Assembly (NCBI GenBank): GCA_963801165.1
Contig: CAWDDT010000009.1
Coordinates: 288,001-352,000, forward strand
DNA length: 64,000 nt
Direction of reading: 5' to 3'
Source of the DNA: an uncultured bacterium
Lineage (GTDB): Bacteria > Actinomycetota > Acidimicrobiia > Spongiisociales > UBA5794
Shown here: one piece after another, positions 9,233-54,555 of the stretch
Layout of the letters: every line of letters begins with the position of its first letter
Position numbering within the stretch: the first letter of the stretch is position 1
Translations under genes and position numbers: made by a program
Notes under the pieces: generated by a model
The model's database searches: none
What the model saw: only the letters and a program-made list of their open reading frames with translations
Told to the model about the DNA's origin: nothing

Positions 9233-10357
9233 ATGAATACAGGAATGAGGGCGGTTCCGCGCAGAGCGATCTGGCTCGGCGTGTTTGTCGTCGCGTTCTC
9301 GATGCTTGTCGCGGCCTGTTCCCAGGACACAAAGGACACGACGACGACAACAACAACCGAGGCGGCTGCGGTCGAGACGACTGCTGCCGGCGTCGCTATG
9401 CCTGCACCGTTCGACGGTGAGGTGAACATTGCCGTTGTTCAGAACAGCGGTGCTGGTGACTATTTCCAGCAGTGGACCAATGGTGCCAAGCTGCAAGCTG
9501 ACGCCATCGGCATCAAGTACACGTGGTACGACGCTCAGGCAGACAACGCCAAGCAGGCGACCGACATGGAGACCGCCATCGGCTCCGGTGTCGACGGTAT
9601 CGTGGTCGACCACGGTCAGACCGACACCATGTGCCCACTGATCAACGATGCCCTCAACGCCGGTATCCCGGTCGTCATCTATGACATCGCGATCGCAGAG
9701 TGTGCCCCGGATGCAGTTCAGACCCAGCAGTCCGACGCCAGCCTCGCCGATCTGTCCCTGGGACAGATGCTCGCCGACATCGGCCCGGATCAGGACGTTG
9801 GCTACGTCAACGTGCTCGGTATCGCTCCGCTCGACCGCAGGCATGTGGTCTGGCAGCAGTACACGGCCGACAACAACTGGAACCAGGTCTTCTTCGTCGG
9901 TGAGTTCACCAACGCTGTTGCTACCGACAACGCCCAGCTCGTTGACGCCGCGCTCAAGGCTAACCCCGACATTCGGGCGATCTTCGCTCCGTACGACGAG
10001 TTGACCAAGGGCACCGTATCGGCAATCAACGACAACGGCCTCGCCGATTCGATCTGGGCATACGGTATCGACATCTCGAATGCCGACATCGAGGTCATGA
10101 CCGCCGATGGCAGCCCGTGGAAGGCAACGGCCACGACCGACCCGAACGCGATCGGTGCCGCCGTCATGCGAACCATGGCTCTCGAGCTGGCGGGCCAGCA
10201 GGGCCCGCGTTCGGTGGACTTCCCCGGCGTGTTGGTGACCCAGCAGTTCCTGCTCGACAACAACATCACCAACATGGTGGACTTGCGGGCAACACTTCCC
10301 GAGCTGAACCTGTCCACCGTCCAGTCGGCAGACTGGATCCCGTCGGTCAAGTTCTAG
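9233..10357 (+). CDS. Sugar ABC transporter substrate-binding lipoprotein
   Basis: Lipobox LVAAC, Thr linker, RbsB-like periplasmic-binding features (GVDGIVVD, GIPVVIYD, AIFAPYDE); SD GAAGGAG. Confidence 0.88.
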   Translation: MNTGMRAVPRRAIWLGVFVVAFSMLVAACSQDTKDTTTTTTTEAAAVETTAAGVAMPAPFDGEVNIAVVQNSGAGDYFQQWTNGAKLQADAIGIKYTWYDAQADNAKQATDMETAIGSGVDGIVVDHGQTDTMCPLINDALNAGIPVVIYDIAIAECAPDAVQTQQSDASLADLSLGQMLADIGPDQDVGYVNVLGIAPLDRRHVVWQQYTADNNWNQVFFVGEFTNAVATDNAQLVDAALKANPDIRAIFAPYDELTKGTVSAINDNGLADSIWAYGIDISNADIEVMTADGSPWKATATTDPNAIGAAVMRTMALELAGQQGPRSVDFPGVLVTQQFLLDNNITNMVDLRATLPELNLSTVQSADWIPSVKF

Positions 10358-10439
10358 GAGGTACTCAGGTGGTCGTCGGCAGTATCAGCCGGTGGCCACC
10401 ACAATCCACCTGAGCCCATTGTCTGAGAGGATGATATCG

Positions 10440-11945
10440 ATGGAACCGGCAGTCACGATGGAAGGCATCACAATGGCCTTCGGACCCAATGAGGTGCTGA
10501 AGGGGATTGACCTTGCCATCGAGCCGGGAAAAGTGACGGCAATGCTCGGCGCCAACGGCGCCGGCAAGTCGACGCTGATCAAGGTCCTCTCGGGTGTATA
10601 CAACGGCTACGGGGGCGTCGTCGTCATCGACGGCGCCCCCGTCGTCATCGACCATCCAACCACGGCCAGGGCACTCGGCATCGAGGCGGTGCACCAGAAA
10701 ATCGCCGACGGCATAGTGCCCGGGCTGAGCGTTGCTGAGAACCTGCTGTTCGAGGGGATCGTCAACAACCAGGTGTCGCGGGTCGCCTCTCTGCGCTCGC
10801 TGATGCCGCGGGCGCGTCAGGTTGCGTCCGTTCTCGACCTCGATTGGTCCGACGATCTGCTCAGAGGCGATGTCTACGAGCTGCCAATTGCCGATCAGCA
10901 GCTCCTCCTCCTGGCACGAGCGCTCGATCACCAACCCCGGCTGCTGATTCTCGACGAGCCCACCTCTGCGCTCTCCGAGACCGAGGCGGAGCGTCTTTTC
11001 GACGTGATTCGCCAATTGCGCGACGGCGGCGTCGCCATCTTCTATGTGTCCCACCGCATCGCAGAGATCGACAGCATCGCGGACCGCCTGCTCGTTCTGC
11101 GCGATGGGGTGATCCGCAGCGAGCAGCTGCGACCATTCGACTGGGCGGCGGCGCTCCACGACATGCTCGACGTTGACGAGGCGGATCGATCGAACCGCAG
11201 TGCTGAGCAGCGGGGCACCGATGTGGCCCTCGAGCTCGCCGGCGTGCAACTCCTCCCCAAGTCCCAGCCCTTCGACCTCGTCATCCGCTCCGGTGAGGTC
11301 ACCGGAGTGTTCGGCCTGTTGGGCTCAGGCGGTGGTCAACTCGCTCACGGGATCTTCGGCGCCGAGCCGTTCGTGTCCGGCGAGATGGTCCTCAAAGGCG
11401 AGCCCTACTCCCCGAAAGCACCGGCCGACGCCATCGCCGCCGACGTCTACATGGTTCCCGAAGACCGGGTCGGAGGAACGTTGATCAAGGGCTGGACGGT
11501 GTCGATGATCGCCACCTTCCCATTCCTCGGGGACGTGTCCCGGCTGGGTGTTCTCAATCCTCTGGCCGAGGCGAAGGTGGGCCGCTCAGTGGTCCAGGAA
11601 TTCGGCGTTGTCGCCCAGTCGGAGGCGGAATCGGTCATGTCTCTCTCCGGCGGCAACCAGCAGAAGGTCGTCGTAGGCCGCTGGCTGCGTAAGCACCCCA
11701 CCGTGATGGTTCTCAACGAACCGTTCCAGGGTGTCGACGTCGGTGCCCGCCACGATCTCGCCGAGAAGGCACGCGAAGTTGCCGGGACGGGCTCGGCGGT
11801 GATCGTGATGTCTACAGATCTAGAAGAAATAATGGAAGTTTCCGACCGGGTCGTCGTGCTCGCGGACGGAAATCTCCGACACGATGCATATCTGTCGGAG
11901 ACAAGTAGGGATGAGATCCTGCAGCGACTCTCGGAGGTTGAGTAA
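10440..11945 (+). CDS. Sugar ABC transporter ATP-binding protein (tandem NBD, CUT2)
   Basis: GANGAGKSTLIK, LILDEPTSAL, LSGGNQQKV, GVDVGA. Confidence 0.93.
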   Translation: MEPAVTMEGITMAFGPNEVLKGIDLAIEPGKVTAMLGANGAGKSTLIKVLSGVYNGYGGVVVIDGAPVVIDHPTTARALGIEAVHQKIADGIVPGLSVAENLLFEGIVNNQVSRVASLRSLMPRARQVASVLDLDWSDDLLRGDVYELPIADQQLLLLARALDHQPRLLILDEPTSALSETEAERLFDVIRQLRDGGVAIFYVSHRIAEIDSIADRLLVLRDGVIRSEQLRPFDWAAALHDMLDVDEADRSNRSAEQRGTDVALELAGVQLLPKSQPFDLVIRSGEVTGVFGLLGSGGGQLAHGIFGAEPFVSGEMVLKGEPYSPKAPADAIAADVYMVPEDRVGGTLIKGWTVSMIATFPFLGDVSRLGVLNPLAEAKVGRSVVQEFGVVAQSEAESVMSLSGGNQQKVVVGRWLRKHPTVMVLNEPFQGVDVGARHDLAEKAREVAGTGSAVIVMSTDLEEIMEVSDRVVVLADGNLRHDAYLSETSRDEILQRLSEVE

Positions 11946-13010
11946 GTGGCCACAACAACGATGACGCCGAAGGGCACGAAGCAGGGGCCGCCAGGCACCG
12001 CGCCGCGTCGAGACGCCCGTGACCTGCTCGTCAAGTACGGCTTCATAGCAGTGACGGTGATCTTTCTCGTGTACTTCATGGCGACCCTGCCGGCGTTCCG
12101 AACCTCGTCGACGATGTTCACGATGCTGAAGTACATCTCGGTCGTTGCCATTGCCGGGTTGGGTGTGACCGTAACGATGGTCGTCGGTGGTCTCGATCTC
12201 TCGGTCGGGGCGACCGCCGGCATGTCGGTGACGGTCGCCGCGATGACGATGGTCATCTATGCGCAGCAGGGCTCGGTGGCAGTCATCGCCGTCATCGCGG
12301 CGGGTGCGATCATCGGTGCCGCTAATGCGCTGTTGATCGTGCTCATGAAGATCCCCGATCTGCTGGCGACCCTGGCAACGATGTTTCTCGTCCAGGGCTT
12401 GAAGCTCGTTCCCGTCGACGGGCAGTCGGTGTCCTCGGGGCTGATCCTCCGTGACGGGTCGGTGGCTCCCGGCAAGTTCACGACTGGCTTCCTCAGGATC
12501 AACCGCGGCTCGATCGGGCCGGTGCCATTCCCCGTGATCATCTTCGCGGTACTTGCGATCTTCACCTGGTTCCTGCTCTCTCGCACCAAGTGGGGCCGGG
12601 TCATGTATGCGATCGGGTCCAACCCGGAGGCGGCCCGTCTCGCCGGTGCCCGGGTCGGTCGCTACAAGGCGTTCGCCTACATGCTCTCCGGCATCTACGC
12701 ATCGATCGCAGGCCTGATTCTTGCCTCCCGTATCGGCCAGGGTGACATCTCTGCCGGGAACTCACTACTCCTCGATGCAGTCGCCGTGGCATTGGTCGGC
12801 ACGTCGGTGCTCGGTGTCGGCAAGCCGAACGCCTTCGGCACAGCGCTCGGCGCAATCCTCATCGGCATCCTTCTCACCGGCACGACCATGATGAACTTCC
12901 AGTACTACTGGCAGGACGTCGTCAAGGGCTTCGTACTCCTGGTTGCTCTGATCTTCTCCTTCACTCTGTCGAGACGGAAGCAACGATTCCAGGCGGCGGT
13001 GCCTCTATGA
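11946..13010 (+). CDS. Sugar ABC transporter permease (RbsC-like)
   Basis: GGLDLSVG, RTKWGRVMYAIGSNPEAARLAG motifs. Confidence 0.93.
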   Translation: MATTTMTPKGTKQGPPGTAPRRDARDLLVKYGFIAVTVIFLVYFMATLPAFRTSSTMFTMLKYISVVAIAGLGVTVTMVVGGLDLSVGATAGMSVTVAAMTMVIYAQQGSVAVIAVIAAGAIIGAANALLIVLMKIPDLLATLATMFLVQGLKLVPVDGQSVSSGLILRDGSVAPGKFTTGFLRINRGSIGPVPFPVIIFAVLAIFTWFLLSRTKWGRVMYAIGSNPEAARLAGARVGRYKAFAYMLSGIYASIAGLILASRIGQGDISAGNSLLLDAVAVALVGTSVLGVGKPNAFGTALGAILIGILLTGTTMMNFQYYWQDVVKGFVLLVALIFSFTLSRRKQRFQAAVPL

Positions 13011-14122
13011 GCGCTGATCAGGCCAGCAGGACCATCTGGATCGATCCCGTCGACCCCGCCTCCGTCGTCTGTATCGATCAGCGCCTGCTCCCCTTCGAGT
13101 ACCAGGAAGTTGCCATCCGCACCTCGAGCGAGATGGCGACGACGATTGCCGACATGGTTGTCCGCGGCGCCGGGTGCATCGGGGTGTCGGCCGGCTACGG
13201 CATGTATCTGGCGGCCCTCGCCACCGACGGTCTGGGCGCCGCCGAAGCGGATGCGTCGCTACACATGGATGCCAAGGAGCTCGAGGGGAGTCGGCCGACC
13301 GCGGTCAACCTGAGCTGGGCGGTGCAGCGTCAACTGAGGGAGCTGCTCGGTGTTGAGGGTTCGGAGGAGCGGATCGCCAGGGCCAGGGCGCTGGCGGACA
13401 CTATCGCCGACGAGGACGTGTCGTACTGCGCTGCCATCGGTCGCCACGGGCTGGGCATCATCGAAGACCTCCACGACCGCAAGGGCGACACGGTCAACAT
13501 CATGACCCACTGCAATGCGGGTTGGCTGGCGTTCGTCGAGCACGGAACGGCCACTGCTCCCATGTACGCAGCCCACGCAGCGGGCATCCCCATCCATGTC
13601 TACGTCTCGGAGACGCGTCCCCGCAACCAGGGTGCCCGGCTGACGGCCTGGGAGCTGGACCGGGCCGGGATCCCGGTCACCGTGATCGCCGACAACGCGG
13701 CCGGTCACCTGCTGCAGCACGGCATGGTGGACATGGTCATCGTCGGTAGCGATAGAACCACGATCAGCGGTGACGTCGCCAACAAGATCGGCACCTACAT
13801 GAAAGCCGTGGTGGCCAAGGAGAACGGCGTCCCGTTCTACGCCGCACTGCCATCGAGCACGCTTGATCCCAAGCTGCACGACGGTGTCACCGAGATCCCG
13901 ATCGAAGAGCGGGGCGGGCACGAGGTCACCAAGACGACCGGATGGTTCGACGGCAGGCAGGTCGAGATGCAGTCGGCGGCTCCCGGCGTGGGCGCCGCCA
14001 ACTATGGGTTCGACGTCACCCCGCGCCGGTTCGTGACCGGGATCATCACCGAGCGCGGTGTCTGCGAGGCGAACGAACAAGCAATCCTGGCGATGTATCC
14101 CGAGTTCGCCGCAAAGGGATGA
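13007..14122 (+). CDS. mtnA: S-methyl-5-thioribose-1-phosphate isomerase (paralog 1)
   Basis: IDQRLLP, MVVRGAG, RPTAVNL, THCNAGWLA, ETRPRNQGARLTAWEL, GDVANKIGTY, FDVTP. Confidence 0.9.
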   Translation: MSADQASRTIWIDPVDPASVVCIDQRLLPFEYQEVAIRTSSEMATTIADMVVRGAGCIGVSAGYGMYLAALATDGLGAAEADASLHMDAKELEGSRPTAVNLSWAVQRQLRELLGVEGSEERIARARALADTIADEDVSYCAAIGRHGLGIIEDLHDRKGDTVNIMTHCNAGWLAFVEHGTATAPMYAAHAAGIPIHVYVSETRPRNQGARLTAWELDRAGIPVTVIADNAAGHLLQHGMVDMVIVGSDRTTISGDVANKIGTYMKAVVAKENGVPFYAALPSSTLDPKLHDGVTEIPIEERGGHEVTKTTGWFDGRQVEMQSAAPGVGAANYGFDVTPRRFVTGIITERGVCEANEQAILAMYPEFAAKG

Positions 14123-14151: not shown

Positions 14152-16119
14152 ATGCACAACAGGTGGAGTGAGGAGCGGGCGGCCGGCTTCGAGAGCCCTC
14201 TCGATCGGTGCGTGTATGCCTCGAGACTGCTCGGCGCAGACACGGCGCTCGTTCTGCACGGCGGCGGCAACACATCTGTGAAGCTCAGGGAGCAGAATCT
14301 CTACGGCGAGCCGGTCGATGTGCTCTACATCAAGGCGAGCGGTCGAGACCTCGTCGACATTGACGACGAGGGATTTGCCCCTCTCGACCTCACCCGGGTG
14401 CGCCGGCTCGTCGAGCTGGATGAGCTCTCGGATACCGCGATGCTCAACGAGTTGAAGGGGGCCCGGCTGAGCGCAGACGCACCCGTGCCCTCGGTCGAGG
14501 CGATCCTGCACGCAATCATCCCCAGCCACGCCGTGCAGCACGCTCATCCCAACGCGCTCCTCGCCATATCGAACACCGTCGACGGTGAGGAGAAGGTCAG
14601 AAAGCTATACGGGAGCCGAGTGGTCGTCGTTCCGTACACGATGTCGGGATTCCGCGCCGCGACCGCGGCCGCAAGGGCCTACGCCCGGGAGGCGACCGGC
14701 GAAACTGAAGGTGTTGTGCTCATGAACCACGGCATCTTCACCTTCGGGGATTCACCCCGCGAGGCATATCACCGGATGGTCGACCTGGTCGGTGCCGCCG
14801 AGGACTTCCTCGCCGAGCACTCGATGGGGGGAGAGTCGCCCCGGCCGGATCGAGAGCCCCCGGTCATCGACCGGTGCGACCTGGCCGGCCTCCGCAAGGA
14901 GATCTCGGATATCGCCGGGAAGCCGTGCATCGTGCGTCGTCACCGTGACGAGGTCAGCTGGGCGTTCTCGCAGCGCCCCGACCTGGCAGCGGTGAGCCAG
15001 CAGGGAGTAGCAACACCCGACCATGTCATCTGGACCAAGCGGGTTCCGCTCCTGGGTCGGGACGTTGCCACCTACGCCAAGGACTACGAGGCCTACTTCG
15101 ACGAATATGCGGTCGGGCGCGCGCTCCGAATGCTCGATCCGGCGCCACGGGTGATCATCGACCCCGAGTTGGGGATGGTCACCGCCGGGCCCGATGTCGA
15201 CGCCGAGCAGGCGGCCGCCGACATCTATCTCCAGATCATCGACGTCATCGAGCACGCTGAGGGCCTGGGCGGCTACTCCGCCCTTCCCGCCGGTGACATT
15301 TTCGATCTCGAGTATTGGGAGCTGGAGCAGCTGAAGCTCGACCTCGTTCCCCATGAGGGTGAGTTCACCGGCGAGGTCGCCGTGGTCACCGGGGCGAACT
15401 CAGGGATCGGGCGTGGCTGCGCGCTGGCGCTGCTGGCAAAGGGAGCGGCAGTAGTGGGCCTCGACATCAACCCCGCGGTTTCCGAGATGTCGGACGATCC
15501 CGCCTTCTACGGCATCCAGTGTGACCTCTCCTCGCCGCAGGAAACCTCGGCCGCGCTCGACCGTGGTGTCGAGCGATTCGGCGGCGTCGACATGCTCGTG
15601 GCCGCCGCAGGGCTCTTCCCCGAATCGTCCCCGATCTCCGCTCACGACCCGACCGCGTGGCGCCGAGCCATGTCCGTCAACGTCGACGGACTGGTGCAAC
15701 TCCTGTCGATGATGCACCCCCTCCTCGTGCAGGCGCCGCGCGGCGGTCGTGTCGTGGTGATCGGATCGAAGAACGTCGTCGCACCCGGTCCGGGCGCCAG
15801 CGCCTACTCGGCTTCCAAGGCAGCCGCCAACCAGATCGCACGTGTCGCGGCGCTCGAATGGGCGCCGGAGGGGATCAGGGTCAACTCGGTCCATCCGGAC
15901 GCGGTCTTCGATACCGCATTGTGGACACCGGAGCTCCTGGCGGCACGGGCGGCGCACTACGGCATGACCGTTGAGGACTACAAGCGCCGCAACCTGATGA
16001 GTGTGGAGATCACCAGCGCCGCGGTCGGCGAGGTCGTTGCCACGATGCTCGGCGACGTCTTCGGCACGATTACGGGGGCGCATATCCCCATAGACGGCGG
16101 CAACGACCGCGTGATTTGA
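14152..16119 (+). CDS. Bifunctional class II aldolase / short-chain dehydrogenase
   Basis: LHGGGNTSVK, PSVEAILH, HAH and NHG metal ligands; C-terminal VTGANSGIG and YSASK (YxxxK). Confidence 0.88.
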   Translation: MHNRWSEERAAGFESPLDRCVYASRLLGADTALVLHGGGNTSVKLREQNLYGEPVDVLYIKASGRDLVDIDDEGFAPLDLTRVRRLVELDELSDTAMLNELKGARLSADAPVPSVEAILHAIIPSHAVQHAHPNALLAISNTVDGEEKVRKLYGSRVVVVPYTMSGFRAATAAARAYAREATGETEGVVLMNHGIFTFGDSPREAYHRMVDLVGAAEDFLAEHSMGGESPRPDREPPVIDRCDLAGLRKEISDIAGKPCIVRRHRDEVSWAFSQRPDLAAVSQQGVATPDHVIWTKRVPLLGRDVATYAKDYEAYFDEYAVGRALRMLDPAPRVIIDPELGMVTAGPDVDAEQAAADIYLQIIDVIEHAEGLGGYSALPAGDIFDLEYWELEQLKLDLVPHEGEFTGEVAVVTGANSGIGRGCALALLAKGAAVVGLDINPAVSEMSDDPAFYGIQCDLSSPQETSAALDRGVERFGGVDMLVAAAGLFPESSPISAHDPTAWRRAMSVNVDGLVQLLSMMHPLLVQAPRGGRVVVIGSKNVVAPGPGASAYSASKAAANQIARVAALEWAPEGIRVNSVHPDAVFDTALWTPELLAARAAHYGMTVEDYKRRNLMSVEITSAAVGEVVATMLGDVFGTITGAHIPIDGGNDRVI

Positions 16120-16194: not shown

Positions 16195-16989
16195 ATGGAC
16201 TGGGGCATGAAGCGTCGGCTGGCGCAGATCATCCCGCCGGAGACAGGGCACGCGTTCTTTATCGCCATCGACCACGGATACTTCCTTGGACCAACACGCA
16301 TGCTGGAACGACCCGGCGAGACTGTGCGCGACCTCACTCCGATCGCCGATGCGCTCTTTGTGACACGGGGCGTCCTCAGAAACGCCATCCCACCCGAGAC
16401 CAAGCCGAATGTGATCCTCAGAATCAGCGGTGGCACCAGCATCGTCGGGCCGTCGCTCGAGAACGAGCAGCTGGTCGTTGACCCGGAGGAGGTGATTCGT
16501 CTGGGCGCTTGCGCAGTCGGCATCTCGGTCTTCGTCGGCTCGGAGTACGAACGGGAATCGCTCGGGAACCTTGCCCGTGCGGTGAACCAGTTCGAGCGGT
16601 ATGGCATCCCGGTCATGGCGGTCACGGCCGTCGGCAAGGAGCTCGAGAAGCGCGACGCCCGCTACCTCGCCCTCAGCTGTCGGATCGCAGCAGAGCTGGG
16701 AGCCCGGGTCGTCAAGACCTATTGGTGCGAGGACTTCGAGAAGGTCACCTCTTCGTGTCCGGCACCCGTGGTTATCGCGGGTGGGCCGAAGACCGACGAC
16801 GCCTACGAGGTCTTCTCGTTCGTTCGCGATGGCATCGATCGAGGCGCCATCGGCGTCAACCTGGGTCGCAATATCTGGCAGCACCACGATCCCGTGGGCG
16901 TCGCCCGAGGCTTGCGTGCCGTGATCCACGAGGGCGCGTCACCAGAGCAGGCCAACGCCATGGTGGCGCAGGAACCGGTGGTGGTTTGA
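16195..16989 (+). CDS. lsrF: LsrF-family class I aldolase-fold thiolase (3-hydroxy-5-phosphonooxypentane-2,4-dione thiolase-like)
   Basis: DWGMKRRL...DHGYFLGPT...RIAAELGARVVKTY...IAGGPK...GRNIWQ closely follows E. coli LsrF as I recall it. Confidence 0.85.
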   Translation: MDWGMKRRLAQIIPPETGHAFFIAIDHGYFLGPTRMLERPGETVRDLTPIADALFVTRGVLRNAIPPETKPNVILRISGGTSIVGPSLENEQLVVDPEEVIRLGACAVGISVFVGSEYERESLGNLARAVNQFERYGIPVMAVTAVGKELEKRDARYLALSCRIAAELGARVVKTYWCEDFEKVTSSCPAPVVIAGGPKTDDAYEVFSFVRDGIDRGAIGVNLGRNIWQHHDPVGVARGLRAVIHEGASPEQANAMVAQEPVVV

Positions 16990-17289: not shown

Positions 17290-17394
17290 TCGCCGTGAAG
17301 GGTCGCAATGCCTCGAGGTGCTTGCGCGTCGATCCAGGCGTCGAGCCTGAACTGGAATTATTCAACACACTCCAAAGAGCGGAGGAGAAGAAGG

Positions 17395-18609
17395 ATGGCC
17401 CCCGACTACGAGATCCTCAACCCGGAGACGGTCCCGGCATACATCGACAGAACACCCCGGCTGGACGGCATCGTCGACACCTCCACGCTGGAAGTGTCGG
17501 AGGTCGGTGACGGTAACCTGAACCTCGTCTTCGTCTGCAAGGATGGAAACGGCGACGGCATCTGTCTCAAGCAGTCGTTGCCCTACGTCCGGCTGGTCGG
17601 CGAGGGGTGGCCGCTGACACCGGAGCGAGTCATCGCCGAGGCGCGCGGGCTCGCCGCTGCTGTCGATCACGTCCCGGATCTGGTTCCCGCCTATTACGGA
17701 CTGGACGAGGCCAACTATGTGCTGGCCATGGAGAACCTCATTGGCTGGGACATGTGGCGGACCCAGCTGAATGAGGGTGTCTCCCACCCCGGTGTCGGCG
17801 CCAAGCTCGGCCGGTACGTGGCCAATCTCTGTTTCTACACCTCGTTTTTCACCATCGATCAGGGCGAGATCAAAGAGCGGCTCGCCGCAGCGATCAACCC
17901 GGAGCTGTGCAAGATCACCGAGGACCTCGTCTTCACCGAGCCGTACATCGATGTCCCCAACAACAGTTACGTCGATGAGCTGGTCCCCGAGGTGGAGGGC
18001 ATGCGCGCCGACGCCAGGCTCCGCGCCGACGTCGGGATGCTGAAGTACAAATTCATGACCGCAGGGCAGGCGCTGATCCACGGCGACCTGCACACCGGCT
18101 CCGTCATGGTGCGCCGTGGTGAGAACGGCGCCGAGTGCAAGGTCATCGACCCCGAGTTCTGCTACTACGGGCCGGTGGGCTTCGATCTCGGTGCGCTCTT
18201 TGGCAACTACCTCGCCGCCCGGGCCCGCGCCGCAGTTCTCGACCGACCAGCCGAATACCAGCAATGGTTGGCCGATCTGGGTCCGGAGACGTGGGATGCC
18301 TTCGCCGCGGAGATGCACCGCTTGTGGCCGGAGCGGCTCGACAAGACATGGACCGACGGTTTCCTCGAGGCCTGGCTGGCCCAGGTCGCCAGGGACACCA
18401 TCGGGTACGGCGGCTGCAAGGCGAACCGGCGCATCATCGGGCTCGCCAAGGTCACCGACATCCAGCAACTCCCGAACGAAGAGCACGTCAAGGCGGCCAC
18501 GATGGTTCTCCGCACCGCCAGCACCTGGATTCGGGAGCGCGACGGCCTCGGGACCGTCGCCGCGGCCAACGAGGTGTTCGAGACGATCCGGGCGAAGGTC
18601 CTGGGCTGA
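17395..18609 (+). CDS. mtnK: S-methyl-5-thioribose kinase
   Basis: EVGDGNLNLVF, KQSLPYVRLVGEGWPL, ITEDLVFTEPY, LIHGDLHTGS, IDPEF. Confidence 0.95.
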   Translation: MAPDYEILNPETVPAYIDRTPRLDGIVDTSTLEVSEVGDGNLNLVFVCKDGNGDGICLKQSLPYVRLVGEGWPLTPERVIAEARGLAAAVDHVPDLVPAYYGLDEANYVLAMENLIGWDMWRTQLNEGVSHPGVGAKLGRYVANLCFYTSFFTIDQGEIKERLAAAINPELCKITEDLVFTEPYIDVPNNSYVDELVPEVEGMRADARLRADVGMLKYKFMTAGQALIHGDLHTGSVMVRRGENGAECKVIDPEFCYYGPVGFDLGALFGNYLAARARAAVLDRPAEYQQWLADLGPETWDAFAAEMHRLWPERLDKTWTDGFLEAWLAQVARDTIGYGGCKANRRIIGLAKVTDIQQLPNEEHVKAATMVLRTASTWIRERDGLGTVAAANEVFETIRAKVLG

Positions 18610-19691
18610 TGTTGGATCTCTCGCTGGCCGATGACTTCCTCGCCAAGCTGCAACCGTCGGTGGCCTGGGTCGACGATCACATCGAGATCATCGACCAGAC
18701 CAAGCTGCCCGCCGAGCTCGAGATCCTCCAACTGCGCCGGGTCGACGAGGTGGTCGACGTTATCTACCGGCTGGCGGTGCGGGGGGCGCCCGCGATCGGG
18801 GCATGTGGCGCCCTCGGCATGGTCGTCGGCCTCGACGAAAGGCAGCCGCAAACCGCGGCCGACGCAGTTGCCGTGCTCGACGAGCTTGTGGAGACGATCG
18901 GCAACGCCCGGCCCACCGCGGTGAACCTGAGCTGGGCGGTGAAACGCCTGCGGGACGCCGCCGTGTCCGGAAGCGATGCCGCCGGGGTGAGACGGCTTGC
19001 CATGGCGGAAGCCCGGGCGATCATCGCCGAGGATCGCGACGCCTGCACCCGGATCGGTATCAACGGCCGCAAAGAGCTCGAGGGTCTGGACAAGATCCTC
19101 ACGCACTGCAACACAGGCAGACTCGCCACCGCCGGTTGGGGCACTGCTCTCGGCGTCGTCTATGCGAAGGCAGCGGCCGGTGAGCCGGTCGAGGTGCTTT
19201 CCTCCGAAACACGGCCGCTGTTGCAAGGTGCCCGGCTGACAACCTGGGAGTTGCACGACGCCGGTATCCCGGTGACCCTCATGCCGGACGGAGCCAGCTC
19301 CACGGCGATGGCGCAGGGCAAGGTCCAGGCGGTCATTGTCGGCGCCGATCGGATTGCTGCCAACGGCGACACCGCCAACAAGATCGGGACCCTTACCCAC
19401 GCCGTCAACGCCAGGTTCGCCGGGATCCCTTTCTACGTGGCCGCTCCGCTCTCGACGTTCGATACCTCTTTGAGCAGCGGCGCCGGGATAGAGATCGAGC
19501 TGCGGCCCGATGACGAGATGAGGAGGTGGCGGTCGGAGCCGACCGCCCCGGGCGACATTGCGGTGTGGAACCCCGCCTTCGACGTGACCCCCGCCGATTT
19601 GATCACCGCAATCATCACCGAGGTTGGGGTGCTGAAGCCCCCCTATGAGGAGTCGATCCGGGTCGCCTTCGAGGCTGGAGGGAAACCGTGA
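18609..19691 (+). CDS. mtnA: S-methyl-5-thioribose-1-phosphate isomerase (paralog 2)
   Basis: IDQTKLP, VRGAPAIG, RPTAVNL, THCNTGRLATAGWGTALG, ETRPLLQGARLT, GDTANKIGT, NPAFDVTP. Confidence 0.92.
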   Translation: MLDLSLADDFLAKLQPSVAWVDDHIEIIDQTKLPAELEILQLRRVDEVVDVIYRLAVRGAPAIGACGALGMVVGLDERQPQTAADAVAVLDELVETIGNARPTAVNLSWAVKRLRDAAVSGSDAAGVRRLAMAEARAIIAEDRDACTRIGINGRKELEGLDKILTHCNTGRLATAGWGTALGVVYAKAAAGEPVEVLSSETRPLLQGARLTTWELHDAGIPVTLMPDGASSTAMAQGKVQAVIVGADRIAANGDTANKIGTLTHAVNARFAGIPFYVAAPLSTFDTSLSSGAGIEIELRPDDEMRRWRSEPTAPGDIAVWNPAFDVTPADLITAIITEVGVLKPPYEESIRVAFEAGGKP

Positions 19692-20587
19692 GCGAATGGA
19701 AGCAGGCGACCCAAGCGGTTGCCGACGGCATACGCCGGCGGGTGCTCGAGCACGTACTCGCCAACAACGGCGGATATATGAGCCAGGCATGCTCCGCGGC
19801 TGAGATCTTTGCGATGTTGTATTCCCGGGTGATGAACCTCGGTGCCAGCCAGGCCCCTCTCGAGCCTCGCCGGTTTGCGGGCGTGCCCGGCCCGGGAGTG
19901 CCCTTCATCACCGGCGCTGACTACAACGGGCCCCGCGGACCCGGGTACGACCGCTTCATCTTCTCCCCGGCTCACTATGCATTGGTGCTGTATGCCACCC
20001 TGATCGAGGTTGGCAGGCTTGCCGAGAGGGGGCTTGATCACTTCAACGAAGATGGCAGCACGGTCGAGATGATCGGTGCCGAGCATTCCCCCGGTGTCGA
20101 GACCACCACCGGGTCTCTCGCTCAAGCGTTGAGCCAGGCCGGCGGTATCGCCCTGGCACGCAAGCTGCGTGGCGACACCGGCAACGTCTGGGTGATGATG
20201 TCCGACGGTGAGTTTCAGGAGGGACAAACCTGGGAGGCCGTCGCACAGGTCGCCCGCTTCGAACTCGACAACCTCAGGGTCATCGTCGATGCGAACGGCC
20301 AGCAATGCGACGGCTGTCTCGACGAGGTGGAGACGGCCGACCCGTTGACAAACAGGATCCGGGCGTTCGGTGCCAGCGCCATCGAGAGCAACGGGCACGA
20401 TCTCGACGGTCTGGAAGAGGCGATGACTATGGCGACCGGCAAGCCGCACTTCGTGATTGCCCGGACGGACCCGGTGCGCGGGCTTCCTCTGTTTGCGGAT
20501 AGAGCACCCCTGTTGCACTACTTGCGTTTCACCTCACCCGAGGAGAGGGCCCGTTACGAGGCGGCTTACGAAGAGATGGTGAGTTGA
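19688..20587 (+). CDS. Transketolase-like ThDP enzyme, N-terminal subunit
   Basis: DRFIFSPAH, PGVETTTGSLAQ, SDGEFQEGQTWEA...DANGQQ ThDP-binding motif. Confidence 0.88.
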   Translation: MSEWKQATQAVADGIRRRVLEHVLANNGGYMSQACSAAEIFAMLYSRVMNLGASQAPLEPRRFAGVPGPGVPFITGADYNGPRGPGYDRFIFSPAHYALVLYATLIEVGRLAERGLDHFNEDGSTVEMIGAEHSPGVETTTGSLAQALSQAGGIALARKLRGDTGNVWVMMSDGEFQEGQTWEAVAQVARFELDNLRVIVDANGQQCDGCLDEVETADPLTNRIRAFGASAIESNGHDLDGLEEAMTMATGKPHFVIARTDPVRGLPLFADRAPLLHYLRFTSPEERARYEAAYEEMVS

Positions 20588-20588
20588 G

Positions 20589-21596
20589 ATGGAGATCGTC
20601 AAGCGGCCGCACGTTCAGAATTTCATCGATTGGAGTCGCGATAAGCCCGAGGTGGTCGTCCTCACCGCCGATCTGACCAACTCGAGCGAGGTGGGGCAAT
20701 GGCGGGACACCTACCCCGACCGCTTCTTTGCGATGAAGATGGCCGAGCAGAACATGATGGGTTTCGCCGCCGGGCTTGCCCGCGAGGGCTACGAGCCGTG
20801 GATACACACCTTCGCCGTGTTCATCTACCGGCGTCCGCTCGATCAGCTTGCCATGTCGATCGCATACCCCAACCTTCCGGTGCGGTTTGTCGGGTTCCTC
20901 CCCGGGATCACGACTCCAGGCGGGGTCACTCACCAGGCTATTGAGGATCTCGCCGTGATGCGGGCGACGCCGAACATGACCATCCTCGAGACCGGCGACG
21001 CCACCGAGGTAGAGAGCGTGCTCGATGTCGCCCACGGTGTCGAAGGGCCCGTCTACATCCGGATGTTGCGAGGCGAGGTACCCCGGTTGTTCGCCAAAGA
21101 CGAGCCGATGCGGCTCGACAAGGTCAGGGTGCTCAGCGAGGGCGACGACGTCACCGTGTTCACCGCCGGTATCACCACAGAAGAGGCCATGCGAGCGGCC
21201 GCTCCTCTCGCCGCTGCCGGGGTCGGGATGACCCATGTCCATGTCTCGACCCACAAGCCGTTCAGCGATCCCCTGATCGTCGAGTCGATCAAACGCGCCA
21301 GGTACGGCGTGATGACGCTGGAGAACCACACGATCATCGGTGGCCTCGGCTCGGCGGTGGCTGAGTTGATGGCGGAGAACGCCGTCGGGCAACGTCTTGT
21401 CAGGCTGGGTCTGCGTGACACGTACGCTCACGGCGCCAGCCGGCAGTACCTGATGAAGGAGTACGGTCTCGATGCCCCCGCTCTTGTGAAGGGCATCGAA
21501 GACCTCCTCGGGAGACCGACGGGGATCACGGAGCCGGATCTCGAAGCGGTGCGTATCGAAGCCGTCCATAGCATGGCCAAGGCGGAGGCGCTGTGA
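20589..21596 (+). CDS. Transketolase-like ThDP enzyme, C-terminal subunit
   Basis: LTADL, AEQNMMGFAAGLA, THQAIED, GPVYIR, ENHTIIGGLGSAVAE. Confidence 0.9.
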   Translation: MEIVKRPHVQNFIDWSRDKPEVVVLTADLTNSSEVGQWRDTYPDRFFAMKMAEQNMMGFAAGLAREGYEPWIHTFAVFIYRRPLDQLAMSIAYPNLPVRFVGFLPGITTPGGVTHQAIEDLAVMRATPNMTILETGDATEVESVLDVAHGVEGPVYIRMLRGEVPRLFAKDEPMRLDKVRVLSEGDDVTVFTAGITTEEAMRAAAPLAAAGVGMTHVHVSTHKPFSDPLIVESIKRARYGVMTLENHTIIGGLGSAVAELMAENAVGQRLVRLGLRDTYAHGASRQYLMKEYGLDAPALVKGIEDLLGRPTGITEPDLEAVRIEAVHSMAKAEAL

Positions 21597-22726
21597 TGAT
21601 CGAGCCGACTTCCCTCACCGTCAGCGGCGGCCGAATCGAAGCCGTATACGAGTTCTATGGTGACGTTGCCGAGGCGGAAGCGCGCGTCGATGCCTTGCGG
21701 GTGGAACAGACGATCGAGTTCCCGGCCGACCTCGTCCCGGATGACGACATCCAGCGGGAGGTCGTCGGCCGTGTCGAGTCGCTCGAAGTAGTAGGCGACG
21801 ATGTGACGCGTGCCGCGATCAGCTATGCCGTGGAGGACACCGGGTTCGAACTCCCCCAGCTCATGAACGTCCTGTGGGGAAATAGCGCCTTGCTGCCGGG
21901 AATCCGGCTCGTGGACTTCACCCTGCCAGATTCTCTGCTGGAGTACTTTCCCGGACCGACGTACGGAATCGCGGGTCTCCGCGAGATGTTCGACGCACCG
22001 TCCCGTCCTCTGCTGGCGACTGCGCTGAAACCGATGGGTCTGTCGTCCGAGCGGCTGGCCGGCGAGGCATACGAGCTTGCGCTGGGTGGAATCGACATGA
22101 TCAAGGACGACCACAGCCTCGCCAACCAGCCTTTTGCCCCGTTCGCAGAGCGGGTGCAGCGCTGCGCCGAGGCGGTGGCCAAGGCGAACGAGCAGACCGG
22201 TTTCGGGGCCGTCTATATGCCGAGCATCAACGCCCCGTACAACGAGCTGGAGCGGCGTGTGGAGGTTGCCCTGGACGCCGGCGCAGGTGCGTTTCTCGTC
22301 CTCCCCGGTCTCACCGGGTTCGATCAGATGCGCTATTTGGCCTCCGAGGTCGACGTCCCCATCATGGGGCACCCCGCCTTCCTCGGCTCGTACTCTGCCT
22401 CCCCGACAAACGGCATTGCCCACGGCAAGCTGTACGGAACGTTGATGCGTCTCGCCGGTGCCGACCTCTCGATCTTTCCGAACTTTGGCGGCCGATTCAG
22501 TTTCACCCGTGAAGAATGCCGTGACGTCGCCGAGCGCCTCACCGAGCCGCTTGGCGACTTGAAGCCGGCGTTCCCGGCACCGGGTGGAGGCATGACTCTC
22601 TCGAGAGTTAGCGAGATAGTCGACTTCTACGGCAACGACGCGGCGCTTCTCATCGGCGGCGATCTCTATCGTGGGGAGAGCCTGGCGAGAACCGCAGCCG
22701 CCTTTCGCGAAGCGGTATCCGCCTGA
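21593..22726 (+). CDS. RuBisCO-like protein, form IV (KDDH type, resembling 5-methylthioribulose-1-P 1,3-isomerase)
   Basis: EQTIE, GNSAL, FPGP.YG, ALKPMG, GGIDMIKDDH, HPAF, PGGG motifs; only 377 aa; no small subunit or PRK. Confidence 0.88.
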   Translation: MMIEPTSLTVSGGRIEAVYEFYGDVAEAEARVDALRVEQTIEFPADLVPDDDIQREVVGRVESLEVVGDDVTRAAISYAVEDTGFELPQLMNVLWGNSALLPGIRLVDFTLPDSLLEYFPGPTYGIAGLREMFDAPSRPLLATALKPMGLSSERLAGEAYELALGGIDMIKDDHSLANQPFAPFAERVQRCAEAVAKANEQTGFGAVYMPSINAPYNELERRVEVALDAGAGAFLVLPGLTGFDQMRYLASEVDVPIMGHPAFLGSYSASPTNGIAHGKLYGTLMRLAGADLSIFPNFGGRFSFTREECRDVAERLTEPLGDLKPAFPAPGGGMTLSRVSEIVDFYGNDAALLIGGDLYRGESLARTAAAFREAVSA

Positions 22727-22756: not shown

Positions 22757-23692
22757 TCAGGCGAGAAGTGCCCTGGCGAGACCGTCGTCGATGGCCAGTT
22801 CGTTGATGATGCCTGCGGCGATTGCTCCCTTGACCGGTTCCACCTTCTCAACTCCGCCCGCGGCCGCGATGACCCGTTTCGAAGCCCTCAGATCGTCGAG
22901 TGTCAGTGAGATGGGGTGTAGTGCGTCCGGTTTCACGGCGTTGCCATCTGCGTCGTAATACAGGCCAAAAACCTCTCCGACCGCGCCTGCGGCGATGATT
23001 TCCTCCATGGCGTCTTCATCGAGATAGCCGGCCTGCACCAGGAGCGACTCGGGGCCGATGACGCCCACGGCCACCATCACCATGTCGGCCTTGCGGGCGC
23101 GCTCGAGCGCCGTCGCCACCGGCTCGGATGCGAAGAAGTTGCCGGCGACCTCGGCCGATGGGGCGAATCCAGGGGATGGGATGTGCATGACTCTGGCGCC
23201 GAACTTCAGCCCCAACGTGTTCGTGACCTCGACCGCGGGGGCGATGTTGGCCGTGGTCGTGTGACCGAAAGCGTCCACCAGCGTCACTCCGGAGGTACGT
23301 GTGCGCCGCGCTCGTTGGGCGGCGGCACCAAGCGTTCGTCCCCACCCGGCCGCAATCGTGGTCGAGCCGGTTGCCACCATATGCTCCAATCTGCGGGCCA
23401 TGGCAGTTGCGGCCCCCTCTCGGGGTGACTCGCCATCGAGCGCTACCTCGACGGTAGCCCCGGCCAGCCCGTACTTCTCGATGAGTTCCTCAGCCAGGCT
23501 CGCGGTCTCCGGCAGCGGCTCAGTTACGATCACGCGCACGATGCCGTCGCGGGCAGCGTCGGCGAGGAGACGGCTCACCGTTGACCGGGAGATCCCCAAC
23601 CGATCGGCAACGGCCTGTTGATTGAAACTACGCTCGTGATAGAGCCAGGCCGCCCGGATTGCGAGCTCTCTGCGAGGATTGTCGTCGTCCAC
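22757..23692 (-). CDS. SorC/DeoR/LsrR-family sugar-binding transcriptional regulator
   Basis: AAWLYH...QQAVADRLGISRSTVSRLL HTH; GWGRT, GAVGEV, AGGVEK, LAID sugar-binding domain. Confidence 0.92.
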   Translation of the reverse strand: MDDDNPRRELAIRAAWLYHERSFNQQAVADRLGISRSTVSRLLADAARDGIVRVIVTEPLPETASLAEELIEKYGLAGATVEVALDGESPREGAATAMARRLEHMVATGSTTIAAGWGRTLGAAAQRARRTRTSGVTLVDAFGHTTTANIAPAVEVTNTLGLKFGARVMHIPSPGFAPSAEVAGNFFASEPVATALERARKADMVMVAVGVIGPESLLVQAGYLDEDAMEEIIAAGAVGEVFGLYYDADGNAVKPDALHPISLTLDDLRASKRVIAAAGGVEKVEPVKGAIAAGIINELAIDDGLARALLA

Positions 23693-26969: not shown

Positions 26970-27137
26970 GACGCGTCTCCTCGCGGTCTATGTACACCCG
27001 TCGGCGACGACGCCTGAGCGATAAGCGACCGGGCTGGTGAGATGTTGCAGAACGGTGGGAATGACGCGGTCGGGCCGTGCGTTGCACCGGCGACAACAAC
27101 GTGCGTGACACTTGCGCGCTATCTACGCTGGGCCGAT

Positions 27138-27515
27138 ATGGAACTCGACCGGATACTCATCAAGGACCTGAGCGTCTCAGGGATCCTCGGCATAAATCCC
27201 GAGGAACGGGTCACCGAGCAGGAGATCCTGGTGAACGCGGTGCTCTGGACCGACACCAGCGGGGCCGCTCGCAGCGACGACATCGATGACGCCGTCAACT
27301 ACAGAACCGTCACCAAGGCGCTGATCGACCACATCCGCCGTGGTGAGCCGAAGCTGGTCGAGCGGCTGGTTCAGGAGCTGGTCGACGTCTGCTTCGCCAC
27401 GGAGCCGCACATAGCTCAGGTCGAGATGACCGTCGAGAAGCCAGGGGCGCTGCGTTACGCCCGATCCGTTGGCGTTTCGATAACCCGCCGGAGGCAACCG
27501 GCATCGGAGGAGTAG
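27138..27515 (+). CDS. folB: Dihydroneopterin aldolase/epimerase (FolB/FolX family)
   Basis: [39 protein letters not shown]. Confidence 0.85.
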
Positions 27516-27519
27516 CAGG

Positions 27520-28662
27520 ATGGGTACAGAAGGGTCTGTCGAGACAGTCATCTCGCTCGGTTCGAGTATCGAGAAGGAGCGCCATCTTCCTGAGGCGATC
27601 CGGTTGCTGCGGCGTCACCGTCGCATCGAGGTGACCAACGTGAGTCGTTTCTTCGAGAGCGCCGCCGTCGGCGGGCCACCCGATGCCCCCGACTTCTTCA
27701 ATGCGGCCGTTGTTGCCCGCACCGACCTCACCCCAACCGAGCTGCGCGCCGAGCTCCGTCACATCGAGGACGTGTTGGGCCGCAAGCGCACCGACGACAA
27801 GTCCGCACCACGAACCATCGATCTCGACATTGCCTACTACGGCGATCTCGTCGCCAAGTTCGACGACTGGGAGTTGCCCGACCCGGCTGCGGCGGCGGTG
27901 CCACATGTTGTCATCCCGATCGCCGATGTCGCTCCCGACTGGGTCGATCCGCGGACCCACAGGACGGTGTACCAGCTCATGAGAGCCTTGAGCGACGGCG
28001 GCGGCGACCGGGTTCGTCCGGCAGCGGCGATCCGGCTGGCACACCCGTACGAATCGCGTGGGCCTGAGGACTTCGACCTGGCAGGCGATGTATACGCACC
28101 GCAACTCGAAGCGCTGGTGCGGGCCCAACTCCTGGAGCTGGGGGAGAACCCGGATCGCGAAGGGCTCGTCCGCACGCCGCTCAGGGTCGCCCAGGCGCTC
28201 GACTTCCTGACCAACGGCTATGCGACCTCGCTCGAGGAGGTGGTCAACGGAGCAGTCTTCAGCGCCGAAGGCGCCGACGAGATGGTGCTGGTGAGGGATA
28301 TCGAGTTCTACTCGATGTGCGAGCACCACATGCTCCCGTTCTTCGGCAAGGCGGCCGTTGCCTACATCCCGAAGGGCAAGATCATCGGTCTCTCCAAGGT
28401 CGCCCGAATCGTCGATCTATATGCTCGCCGGTTCCAGGTCCAGGAGCGGATGACCAACCAGATCGCCGACGCCCTGTGGGACGTGCTCGAGCCGCTCGGT
28501 GTCGGTGTCGTGATCGAGGGCCAGCACCTGTGCATGATGATGCGGGGGGTGCAAAAGCAGGACAGCTCGACGGTGACGAGTGCCATGAGGGGAACGTTCA
28601 AGAAGGATCCCCGCACCAGAGCCGAGTTCCTCGATCTGGCCACAACCGGCACTCACCGTTAG
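27520..28662 (+). CDS. folE: FolK (HPPK) - FolE (GTP cyclohydrolase I) fusion
   Basis: N-half [27 protein letters not shown]; C-half [47 protein letters not shown]; one continuous frame. Confidence 0.9.
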
Positions 28663-28689
28663 CTGGATGGCGTCACCGACGCCATCCAG
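28663..28689 (+). terminator. GC-rich hairpin after folK-folE
   Basis: CTGGATGGCGTC-ACC-GACGCCATCCAG, perfect 12-bp stem, no U-tract. Confidence 0.5.
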
Positions 28690-28720
28690 GGTGCGTGTTA
28701 CTGGGTAATCTCATGGTGCA

Positions 28721-54532: not shown

Positions 54533-54555
54533 GCTGTCTCCTCCTGGCGGCCCGT

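Follow-up and report, generated by a model that had tools for sequence, protein, structure and literature searches.

Two adjacent genes at positions 19688 to 21596 of a 64,000-nucleotide stretch of bacterial DNA encode a split transketolase-like enzyme with a remodelled substrate site. The stretch, referred to here as the window, covers positions 288,001 to 352,000 of contig CAWDDT010000009.1 (assembly GCA_963801165.1). It comes from an uncultured member of the Acidimicrobiia whose genome, here called G000, is 98.2% complete. Judged from its sequence, the pair is a dedicated thiamine diphosphate (ThDP) enzyme of the transketolase family, predicted to be catalytically competent. Its genes lie between those for a 5-methylthioribose kinase and an isomerase on one side and the gene for a RuBisCO-like protein (RLP) on the other. 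The reading favoured here, with moderate confidence, is that the enzyme cleaves the product of the RLP, 1-methylthio- or 1-deoxy-xylulose-5-phosphate, to glyceraldehyde-3-phosphate and a two-carbon unit, in the place that a cupin holds in a known pathway. If this is right, the scaffold of a transketolase has been adapted to a 1-thio or 1-deoxy ketose, and a widespread enzyme pair represents an undescribed branch of the salvage of S-adenosylmethionine by-products.

The split enzyme and its active site

The N subunit (19688..20587, + strand, 299 residues, GTG start) corresponds to the ThDP diphosphate-binding domain. The C subunit (20589..21596, + strand, 335 residues, ATG start) holds the pyrimidine-binding and C-terminal domains. 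Both open reading frames match Pfam families above cut-off: Transketolase_N at 76.8 bits for the first, Transket_pyr at 94.2 bits and Transketolase_C at 75.7 bits for the second. In phmmer searches of the PDB, the nearest solved proteins are those of the split transketolase of Carboxydothermus hydrogenoformans, namely 6yak for the N subunit (1.1e-33) and 6yaj for the C subunit (1.3e-62). AlphaFold2, given an alignment of 98 rows, modelled the N subunit with a mean predicted local distance difference test (pLDDT) score of 92.8; the TM score of the model to 6yak is 0.80. Intact frames, conserved cofactor residues and this confident model rule out a decayed gene.

Models of specific enzymes are matched below their cut-offs. 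The best NCBIfam transketolase model, NF004559, gives 157.3 bits for the N subunit and 205 bits for the C subunit, both under the equivalog cut-off of 488. The model for 1-deoxyxylulose-5-phosphate (DXP) synthase, TIGR00204, gives 154.2 bits for the C subunit and has a cut-off of 465.95. The N subunit also matches DXP_synthase_N (PF13292) weakly, at 24.8-29.1 bits.

Residue positions follow the numbering of E. coli TktA, translated from tktA in NC_000913. From the literature on the yeast and E. coli enzymes, H26 contacts the C3 hydroxyl, H100 the C1 hydroxyl of the donor and H461 the phosphate. D469 binds the 2-hydroxyl of the acceptor and bears on stereochemistry. The first-pass annotation of the window had picked out four motifs by eye and proposed from them that H26, H100 and D469 are lost. 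All four motifs are present in the translations: GGYMSQ (N-subunit residues 28-33, window 19769-19786), EMIGAEHS (N-subunit residues 127-134, window 20066-20089), SDG (N-subunit residues 172-174) with N203, and GGVTHQ (C-subunit residues 111-116, window 20919-20936).

The proposed losses are upheld both by phmmer and by MAFFT L-INS-i alignment with TktA. The phmmer alignments pair NNGGYMSQ with NSGHPGGS of 6yak and with GSGHPTSC of human transketolase, and GGVTHQ with DGASHQ of 6yaj. The MAFFT alignment places Y30 at H26 and turns the GHP turn of TktA into E-M-I-G, so that H100 pairs with M128 or, according to the alignment used, with I129. In the C subunit H461 becomes F103, E468 becomes P110 and D469 becomes G111. 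The changes at H461 and E468 go beyond what had been noted before, as do an insertion and the list of residues that are kept. Those retained in the N subunit are H66 (H96), D155 (D173), N185 (N203) and H261 (H277), the last unchanged in every one of 98 aligned sequences. Those retained in the C subunit are R358 (R6), S385 (S32), E411 (E53), H473 (H115) and R520 (R161). Three of the four phosphate binders (R358, S385 and R520) are thus kept, and H461 is the one that has changed. The insertion comprises 26 extra N-subunit residues, at about 52-80, between the first long helix and the strand that carries H66 (42 residues, compared with 16 in TktA). It is modelled as ordered, with block pLDDT values of 84-96.

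These replacements would leave a C1 pocket without its hydroxyl-binding histidine and lined instead by Met or Leu, Ile and Tyr, which would suit a methylthio or methyl group. More speculatively, the changes D469 to Gly and H461 to Phe might allow the enzyme to tolerate both C3 epimers made by the RLP.

The genome separately encodes a canonical transketolase of 671 residues, which is 46.5% identical to TktA and has 13 of 13 key residues. A housekeeping transketolase identity for the window pair is ruled out by it. Together with scores far below the equivalog cut-off, this gives good support to the earlier statement that the pair is not a pentose-phosphate transketolase. Two further split transketolase-like pairs occur in the genome. 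One of them (G000:C7:73018-74789) has a canonical N subunit, reading HHHDNH at six positions, and a C subunit with H461 changed to Y and D469 to T. Genes like this pair are found in most relatives, the tallies for which cover 41 genomes and include the unpublished genomes G027 and G038.

The substitutions are not peculiar to the window. A pattern scan of species-representative genomes, one for each species, turned up at least 552 relatives. The locus counts given here come from the best 80 loci, and C subunits were recovered from 76 of these. The H26 position is Tyr in 80 of 80 N subunits, and the H100 position is Met (64) or Leu (16). The H66 position is His (74) or Gln (6), and D155 and N185 are retained in all 80. 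Every one of the 76 C subunits has Phe at H461 and Gly at D469 and keeps H473, S385, E411 and R520. E468 is replaced by Pro (74) or Ala (2), and the R358 position is Arg (71), Lys (4) or Asn (1). Since the substitutions are fixed across both subunits, they are not the result of chance or decay.

A broader comparison was made with 86 representatives of split N-subunit size, taken from clusters at 50% identity, with motifs read by the columns of an L-INS-i alignment. The canonical HHHDNH is found in 41 of the 86. About 31 have Tyr at H26 together with a residue other than His at H100, with or without the insertion. In a quick tree, the insertion-bearing group falls on one side of a branch with SH-aLRT support of 94, and the canonical HHHDNH group is supported at 96. 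For the Y-type split transketolases that do not have the insertion, no relative above 43% identity was found on annotated plasmids.

Some members of the family depart from the pattern. Three insertion-type relatives of the N subunit (P0155, P0166 and P0173, reading YYLERN, YHIARA and FSWAGD) do not have D155, N185 or both, and may be non-catalytic paralogues. In a genome of the same genus (G005:C9:73072-73966), the N-subunit orthologue is found as two overlapping pieces in different frames, covering residues 2-161 and 154-299, which suggests a frameshift or an assembly error.

Gene context and the proposed reaction

The genes that adjoin the pair are all on the + strand. Upstream lie an MtnK-type 5-methylthioribose kinase (17308..18609; TIGR01767, 393.7 bits, cut-off 275) and the second of two MtnA-type isomerases (18609..19691; TIGR00512, 402 bits, cut-off 279). 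Downstream lies the RLP (21593..22726; Pfam RuBisCO_large, 99 bits), which is of the 3qfw type and has the KPM and KDDH motifs. Junctions overlap between MtnK and MtnA (TGATG), between MtnA and the N subunit (GTGA), and between the stop codon of the C subunit and the GTG start of the RLP. A single base separates the N-subunit and C-subunit genes. Such spacing suggests that all five genes are translationally coupled.

The RLP is the sole RuBisCO_large match in the genome. Among PDB structures it is closest to 3qfw (8.6e-76), which is taken here to be the DeepYkr RLP of Rhodopseudomonas palustris, its identity as an RLP being the part that is confirmed. Every other RLP or RuBisCO structure scores 3.6e-44 or weaker, including the YkrW enolases 2oek (4.5e-42) and 2zvi (1e-36). 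At the loci of relatives, 65 neighbouring RLPs were compared; KPM is present in 60 and KDDH in 64. The relevant part of PMC13454268 lists 3qfw as an RLP structure. According to the portion of PMC5893883 that deals with them, DeepYkr RLPs yield 1-methylthioxylulose-5-phosphate, and a cupin normally comes after them. No cupin was found among the open reading frames of window 278-29725 scanned with Pfam.

Other genes of the genome are consistent with sulfur salvage. MtnN and two O-acetylhomoserine/O-acetylserine sulfhydrylases are above cut-off, so the organism can make methylthioribose and fix a thiol into methionine. The assembly, 98% complete, gave no NIR_SIR (sulfite/nitrite reductase) domain, no ARD/MtnD, and no MtnB above cut-off, and MtnP likewise had no match above cut-off in the genome. 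The organism may depend on reduced sulfur. It appears to do without the classical downstream steps of salvage, and the gene context fits a sulfur salvage role.

Neighbourhoods of the 80 loci were surveyed by tblastn with the window proteins. Of 76 loci that could be assessed, 75 have the C subunit next to the N subunit; for the RLP the count is 64 of 71. Other genes are less constant: among the 80 loci there are 40 with an MtnA-like gene, 33 with a fusion of a class II aldolase-family domain and a short-chain dehydrogenase/reductase (SDR), 29 with a SorC regulator, 25 with a binding protein, 23 with MtnK and 18 with an LsrF-like gene. For the 36 loci with full 10-kb flanks, the figures are 30 for the RLP, 23 for MtnA, 17 for the aldolase-SDR fusion, 12 for MtnK and 9 for the LsrF-like gene, and three of these loci have only the RLP and MtnA beside the transketolase genes.

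The hosts belong to at least 10 phyla: Actinomycetota, Chloroflexota, Planctomycetota, Rhodothermota, Deinococcota, Pseudomonadota, Spirochaetota, Acidobacteriota, Myxococcota and Bacillota. Some cultured bacteria carry the full operon on a plasmid, among them Ensifer sp. PDNC004 and Brucella (Ochrobactrum) anthropi ATCC 49188.

Gene fusions join the RLP and the two subunits in a single chain. Three metagenomic proteins (P0125, P0128 and P0129) have the RLP, the N subunit and the C subunit in one frame, with the same motifs. Their clusters include diatom proteins from Conticribra weissflogii (1130 residues) and Discostella pseudostelligera (1066 residues), in both of which RuBisCO_large, Transketolase_N, Transket_pyr and Transketolase_C are found in one chain. 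The bacterial order is N subunit, C subunit, RLP; in the diatom fusions and one Achromatium locus it is RLP, N subunit, C subunit. An unsplit form of the N and C subunits is also known (P0124).

Taken together, these data suggest the following route. The starting sugar would be 5-methylthioribose, either imported or made by the cell, and probably also 5-deoxyribose. MtnK would phosphorylate it at C1, and MtnA would isomerise the product to a ketose-1-phosphate. The RLP would then shift the carbonyl to give 1-methylthio- (or 1-deoxy-) D-xylulose/ribulose-5-phosphate. In the split enzyme, ThDP would add to C2 of this compound, the C2-C3 bond would be broken, and glyceraldehyde-3-phosphate would be released. 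The two-carbon fragment left on ThDP might be released as an aldehyde, be transferred to an acceptor or, in the case of the thio-sugar, lose methanethiol to become an acetyl unit. Cleavage between C2 and C3 to glyceraldehyde-3-phosphate is the simplest proposal, since the residues needed for the ThDP adduct and for the terminal phosphate are retained.

The last of these fates would make the enzyme a "thio-phosphoketolase", a tentative and rather doubtful extension of the favoured reading. After cleavage of 1-methylthio-D-xylulose-5-phosphate, the enamine would expel the C1 methanethiol, and the resulting acetyl-ThDP would be captured by phosphate, CoA or water. Phosphoketolase expels water in a similar way. 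Were this true, it would be a new oxygen-independent form of methionine salvage, in which methylthioribose is converted to glyceraldehyde-3-phosphate, an acetyl unit and methanethiol. The thiol would be fixed by O-acetylhomoserine sulfhydrylase. Such a pathway would serve bacteria deficient in sulfate reduction, and diatoms by means of one fused protein.

The first-pass annotation had already proposed that the enzyme acts on RLP products. The coupled genes, the frequency of the RLP at the loci, the diatom fusions and the close match of the RLP to 3qfw all point that way, and this part of the proposal probably stands. These comparative data fit a 1-methylthio and a 1-deoxy substrate alike. It does not cover every locus. 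The same enzyme with the same signature is present without an RLP in 7 of the 71 assessable loci. In a FastTree phylogeny, these RLP-less members appear in at least five places within the RLP-linked tree, their signature unchanged. The RLP is thus not obligatory, and the substrate may belong to a broader class of ketose phosphates. Two further observations weigh on the same side. The aldolase-SDR fusion and the LsrF-like enzyme of the operon could dispose of the same sugars, and a changed group at C1 does not account for the replacement of D469 by Gly or of H461 by Phe.

The RLP-less loci are varied in their gene content. In three from Actinomycetota (L037, which lies at a contig end, L047 and L051), an ABC importer, an FGGY kinase, a Zn-dehydrogenase and an L-ribulose-5-phosphate-4-epimerase-like protein precede the transketolase genes. 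L050 has a PfkB kinase, L074 a phosphotransferase system (PTS) and L034 an importer only. Two plasmid loci, L093 (Marinovum algicola pMaD5) and L096 (Paracoccus seriniphilus), have an FGGY kinase, a Zn-dehydrogenase and an AraD-like protein. Both also carry a molybdoenzyme of the BisC family (S/N-oxide reductase), a sulfatase and a taurine-type ABC importer, and may handle some other sugar or polyol that contains sulfur. A plasmid of Vibrio nigripulchritudo has the transketolase genes, an RLP and an FGGY kinase, with neither MtnK nor MtnA. The reading adopted here is that the reaction is unchanged at the loci without an RLP and is supplied by different upstream routes.

A full-text literature search returned no paper that links a transketolase-like enzyme to RLP or to methylthioribose salvage, and the string "ketolase" has no occurrence in PMC6302742, PMC5893883 or PMC6079011. 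If the favoured reading holds, it bears on the supply of reduced sulfur to sulfate-reduction-deficient plankton and on the unexplained diversity of RLPs. Carriers range from Acidimicrobiia and freshwater Nanopelagicales to Chromatiaceae, rhizobial plasmids and diatoms. For protein engineering, the enzyme would be a natural template from which to build transketolases that take non-hydroxylated donors. Because it has cultured carriers, the question is open to direct test. Besides those named above, copies are present on Ensifer adhaerens plasmids and in Georgenia sp. H159, Alkalispirochaeta alkalica DSM 8900 and Thiorhodococcus drewsii AZ1.

Alternative readings

One unlikely alternative keeps the transfer of a ketol group and changes the sugar. 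The enzyme would act on an ordinary or stereo-variant pentulose-5-phosphate (L-ribulose-, L-xylulose- or D-ribulose-5-phosphate) or on a branched ketose (apulose-4-phosphate). Loss of the His and Asp residues would then loosen or invert stereospecificity, and the C1 hydroxyl would stay. The Gly found in all 76 C subunits at D469, a residue concerned with acceptor stereochemistry, agrees with this idea. So do the RLP-less loci, with their xylulokinase-like FGGY kinase (196-262 bits with the XylB model, under cut-off), their Zn-dependent polyol dehydrogenase and their L-ribulose-5-phosphate 4-epimerase-like protein (NF005123, 235-245 bits, cut-off 251). However, H100, the residue that binds the C1 hydroxyl of the donor, is Met or Leu in all 80 N subunits, and the genome already has a canonical transketolase. 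Moreover, with methylthioribose or 5-deoxyribose as substrate, what MtnK, MtnA and the RLP produce would fall outside the ordinary pentulose phosphates. A quite improbable alternative is the hydrolytic cleavage of a 2,3-diketone phosphate, either the phosphorylated form of 4,5-dihydroxy-2,3-pentanedione (phospho-DPD) or 2,3-diketo-5-methylthiopentyl-1-phosphate, in the manner of a ThDP-dependent diketone hydrolase. The aldolase-family domain of the operon would then be an MtnB-like dehydratase, and the RLP an enolase or tautomerase. The operon is indeed lsr-like, with a ribose/autoinducer-2 (AI-2)-type importer, a SorC/LsrR-like regulator and an LsrF-type thiolase above cut-off. The class II aldolase fold includes MtnB, to which weak matches are seen, and the part of PMC6302742 that treats them describes YkrW-type RLPs as diketone enolases. 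The RLP of the window, however, is much closer to 3qfw than to the YkrW enolases 2oek and 2zvi. The LsrF-like gene is present at just 18 of 80 loci. The aldolase-SDR fusion matches equivalogs for bifunctional aldolase/SDR proteins, and no MtnB is above cut-off in the genome.

The order of the two enzymes might also be reversed, although this deserves little credence. The ThDP enzyme would make the RLP substrate, for instance from a two-carbon unit and a triose phosphate, and the RLP would isomerise the product. ThDP-dependent carboligations are reversible in principle, and in bacteria the RLP gene comes after those of the two subunits. Yet the known RLP substrate is made by MtnK and MtnA, whose genes stand ahead of the transketolase genes and are coupled to them; the diatom fusions and the Achromatium locus begin with the RLP; and the minimal loci encode no source of a C2 donor. 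Least credible of all is that the pair substitutes for DXP synthase (DXS). The idea arises because G000 has later enzymes of the methylerythritol phosphate (MEP) pathway, Dxr (C10:166157-167272, 404.6 bits) and IspH (C6:359908-360741, 277.4 bits), both above cut-off, and no DXS above cut-off. The best matches to the DXS model are C subunits of split transketolases, and the N subunit of the window pair is the best DXP_synthase_N match of the genome. But H26 and D469, which DXS keeps, have no equivalents here. Nor do genomes without DXS coincide with those that have the operon. G016 and G029 have both DXS and operon, and G017 (99% complete) and G022 (100% complete) have neither. Among the relatives, DXS is above cut-off in 12 of 41 genomes and in none of the 15 from the same genus. 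In the survey reported in PMC10663253, as far as its relevant section goes, 181 species are without Dxs only, and 172 of them are unexplained. The paper poses MEP pathways that have no Dxs as an open question, and the genome, with Dxr and IspH and no DXS, fits it; this counts in favour of a substitute.

Related systems and the remaining genes

The split enzyme shares its fold with TktA and with the split transketolase of C. hydrogenoformans, which is likewise encoded by two genes. Common to all are the ThDP/Mg motif, the activating Glu, H66, H261 and H473. The canonical enzymes differ in having no insertion and in keeping H26, H100, H461, E468 and D469. The window enzyme is encoded with an RLP and not with pentose-phosphate genes. 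DXP synthase is a member of the same ThDP superfamily, and its product is DXP, the 1-deoxy ketose that the window enzyme may cleave. It differs in being a single chain, whereas the window enzyme is made from two genes, scores far under the DXS cut-off and has lost the His and Asp equivalents.

An example of a pathway with a similar set of genes is the methylthioadenosine (MTA)-isoprenoid shunt of Rhodospirillum rubrum and Rhodopseudomonas palustris, which consists of MtnP, MtnA, a DeepYkr RLP and a cupin methylsulfurylase. Both have an MtnA-type isomerase and, after it, an RLP of what is probably the same type (3qfw being nearest, with KDDH). The shunt has a cupin where the window operon has a ThDP enzyme. 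It is entered by way of MtnP, whereas the route proposed here would be entered by way of MtnN, MtnK and the ABC importer. Finally, the shunt ends in DXP, and the window route is predicted to end in a triose phosphate and a two-carbon unit. On the account of the shunt given in part of PMC5893883, both would be oxygen-independent ways of handling methylthioribulose-1-phosphate.

Another relevant pathway is the dihydroxyacetone phosphate (DHAP) shunt for methylthioribose and 5-deoxyribose, known as MtnK/MtnA/Ald2 or DrdK/DrdI/DrdA. As outlined in the pertinent part of PMC6079011, it uses the same kinase and isomerase families and a class II aldolase. The window operon has MtnK and MtnA above their equivalog cut-offs and an Aldolase_II domain, for which an aldolase role is predicted. 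The DHAP shunt needs neither an RLP nor a ThDP enzyme; here the RLP and the transketolase pair form the conserved core.

A split transketolase for an unusual sugar is also said to exist in the catabolism of D-apiose. There AptA/AptB, reportedly described by Carter et al. in 2018, would be an apulose-4-phosphate transketolase whose genes stand with those for an ABC importer, a kinase and a polyol dehydrogenase. On that description it is likewise a split transketolase for an unusual ketose phosphate, and its gene company resembles that of the RLP-less loci. The NCBIfam matches of the window proteins include no model for such an enzyme.

The operon begins with a ribose-type (CUT2) ABC importer. 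Its sugar-binding lipoprotein (9257..10357, +; Pfam Peripla_BP_4, 109 bits) has an approximate start, the reading frame being open from 8627. It is followed by an ATPase with two ABC_tran domains (10392..11945, +; 117 bits in two stretches) and a permease of the ribose/AI-2 type (11946..13010, +; Pfam BPD_transp_2, 138 bits). The best NCBIfam matches of the permease are to ribose, arabinose and AI-2 permeases, all under cut-off.

The first MtnA-type isomerase, which converts an aldose-1-phosphate to a ketose-1-phosphate, is found next (13007..14122, +; TIGR00512, 390.9 bits, cut-off 279). After it come the aldolase-SDR fusion (14152..16119, +; NF006196, 912.9 bits, cut-off 831; Pfam Aldolase_II at 81.1 bits and adh_short) and an LsrF-like aldolase/thiolase of the DhnA family (16195..16989, +). 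The latter scores 332.7 bits, above the cut-off of 297, with NF006081, the model for 3-hydroxy-5-phosphonooxypentane-2,4-dione thiolase. Its operon has no LsrK or LsrG. One MtnA copy thus stands beside the aldolase-SDR fusion and the other beside MtnK and the transketolase genes, which hints at two substrates or two branches.

Convergent with the operon is a regulator of the SorC/DeoR family with a sugar-binding domain (22757..23692, - strand; Pfam Sugar-bind, 157.5 bits). The NCBIfam models for DeoR and LsrR match it under cut-off, the latter at 103.8 bits. The window also encodes an 807-residue ThDP protein (52505-54928, - strand), a fused E1 alpha/beta dehydrogenase that is unrelated to the transketolase pair. 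Downstream of the operon, at 27042-29725, genes for FolB, a fused HPPK-GTP cyclohydrolase I and MoaA follow one another in a row.

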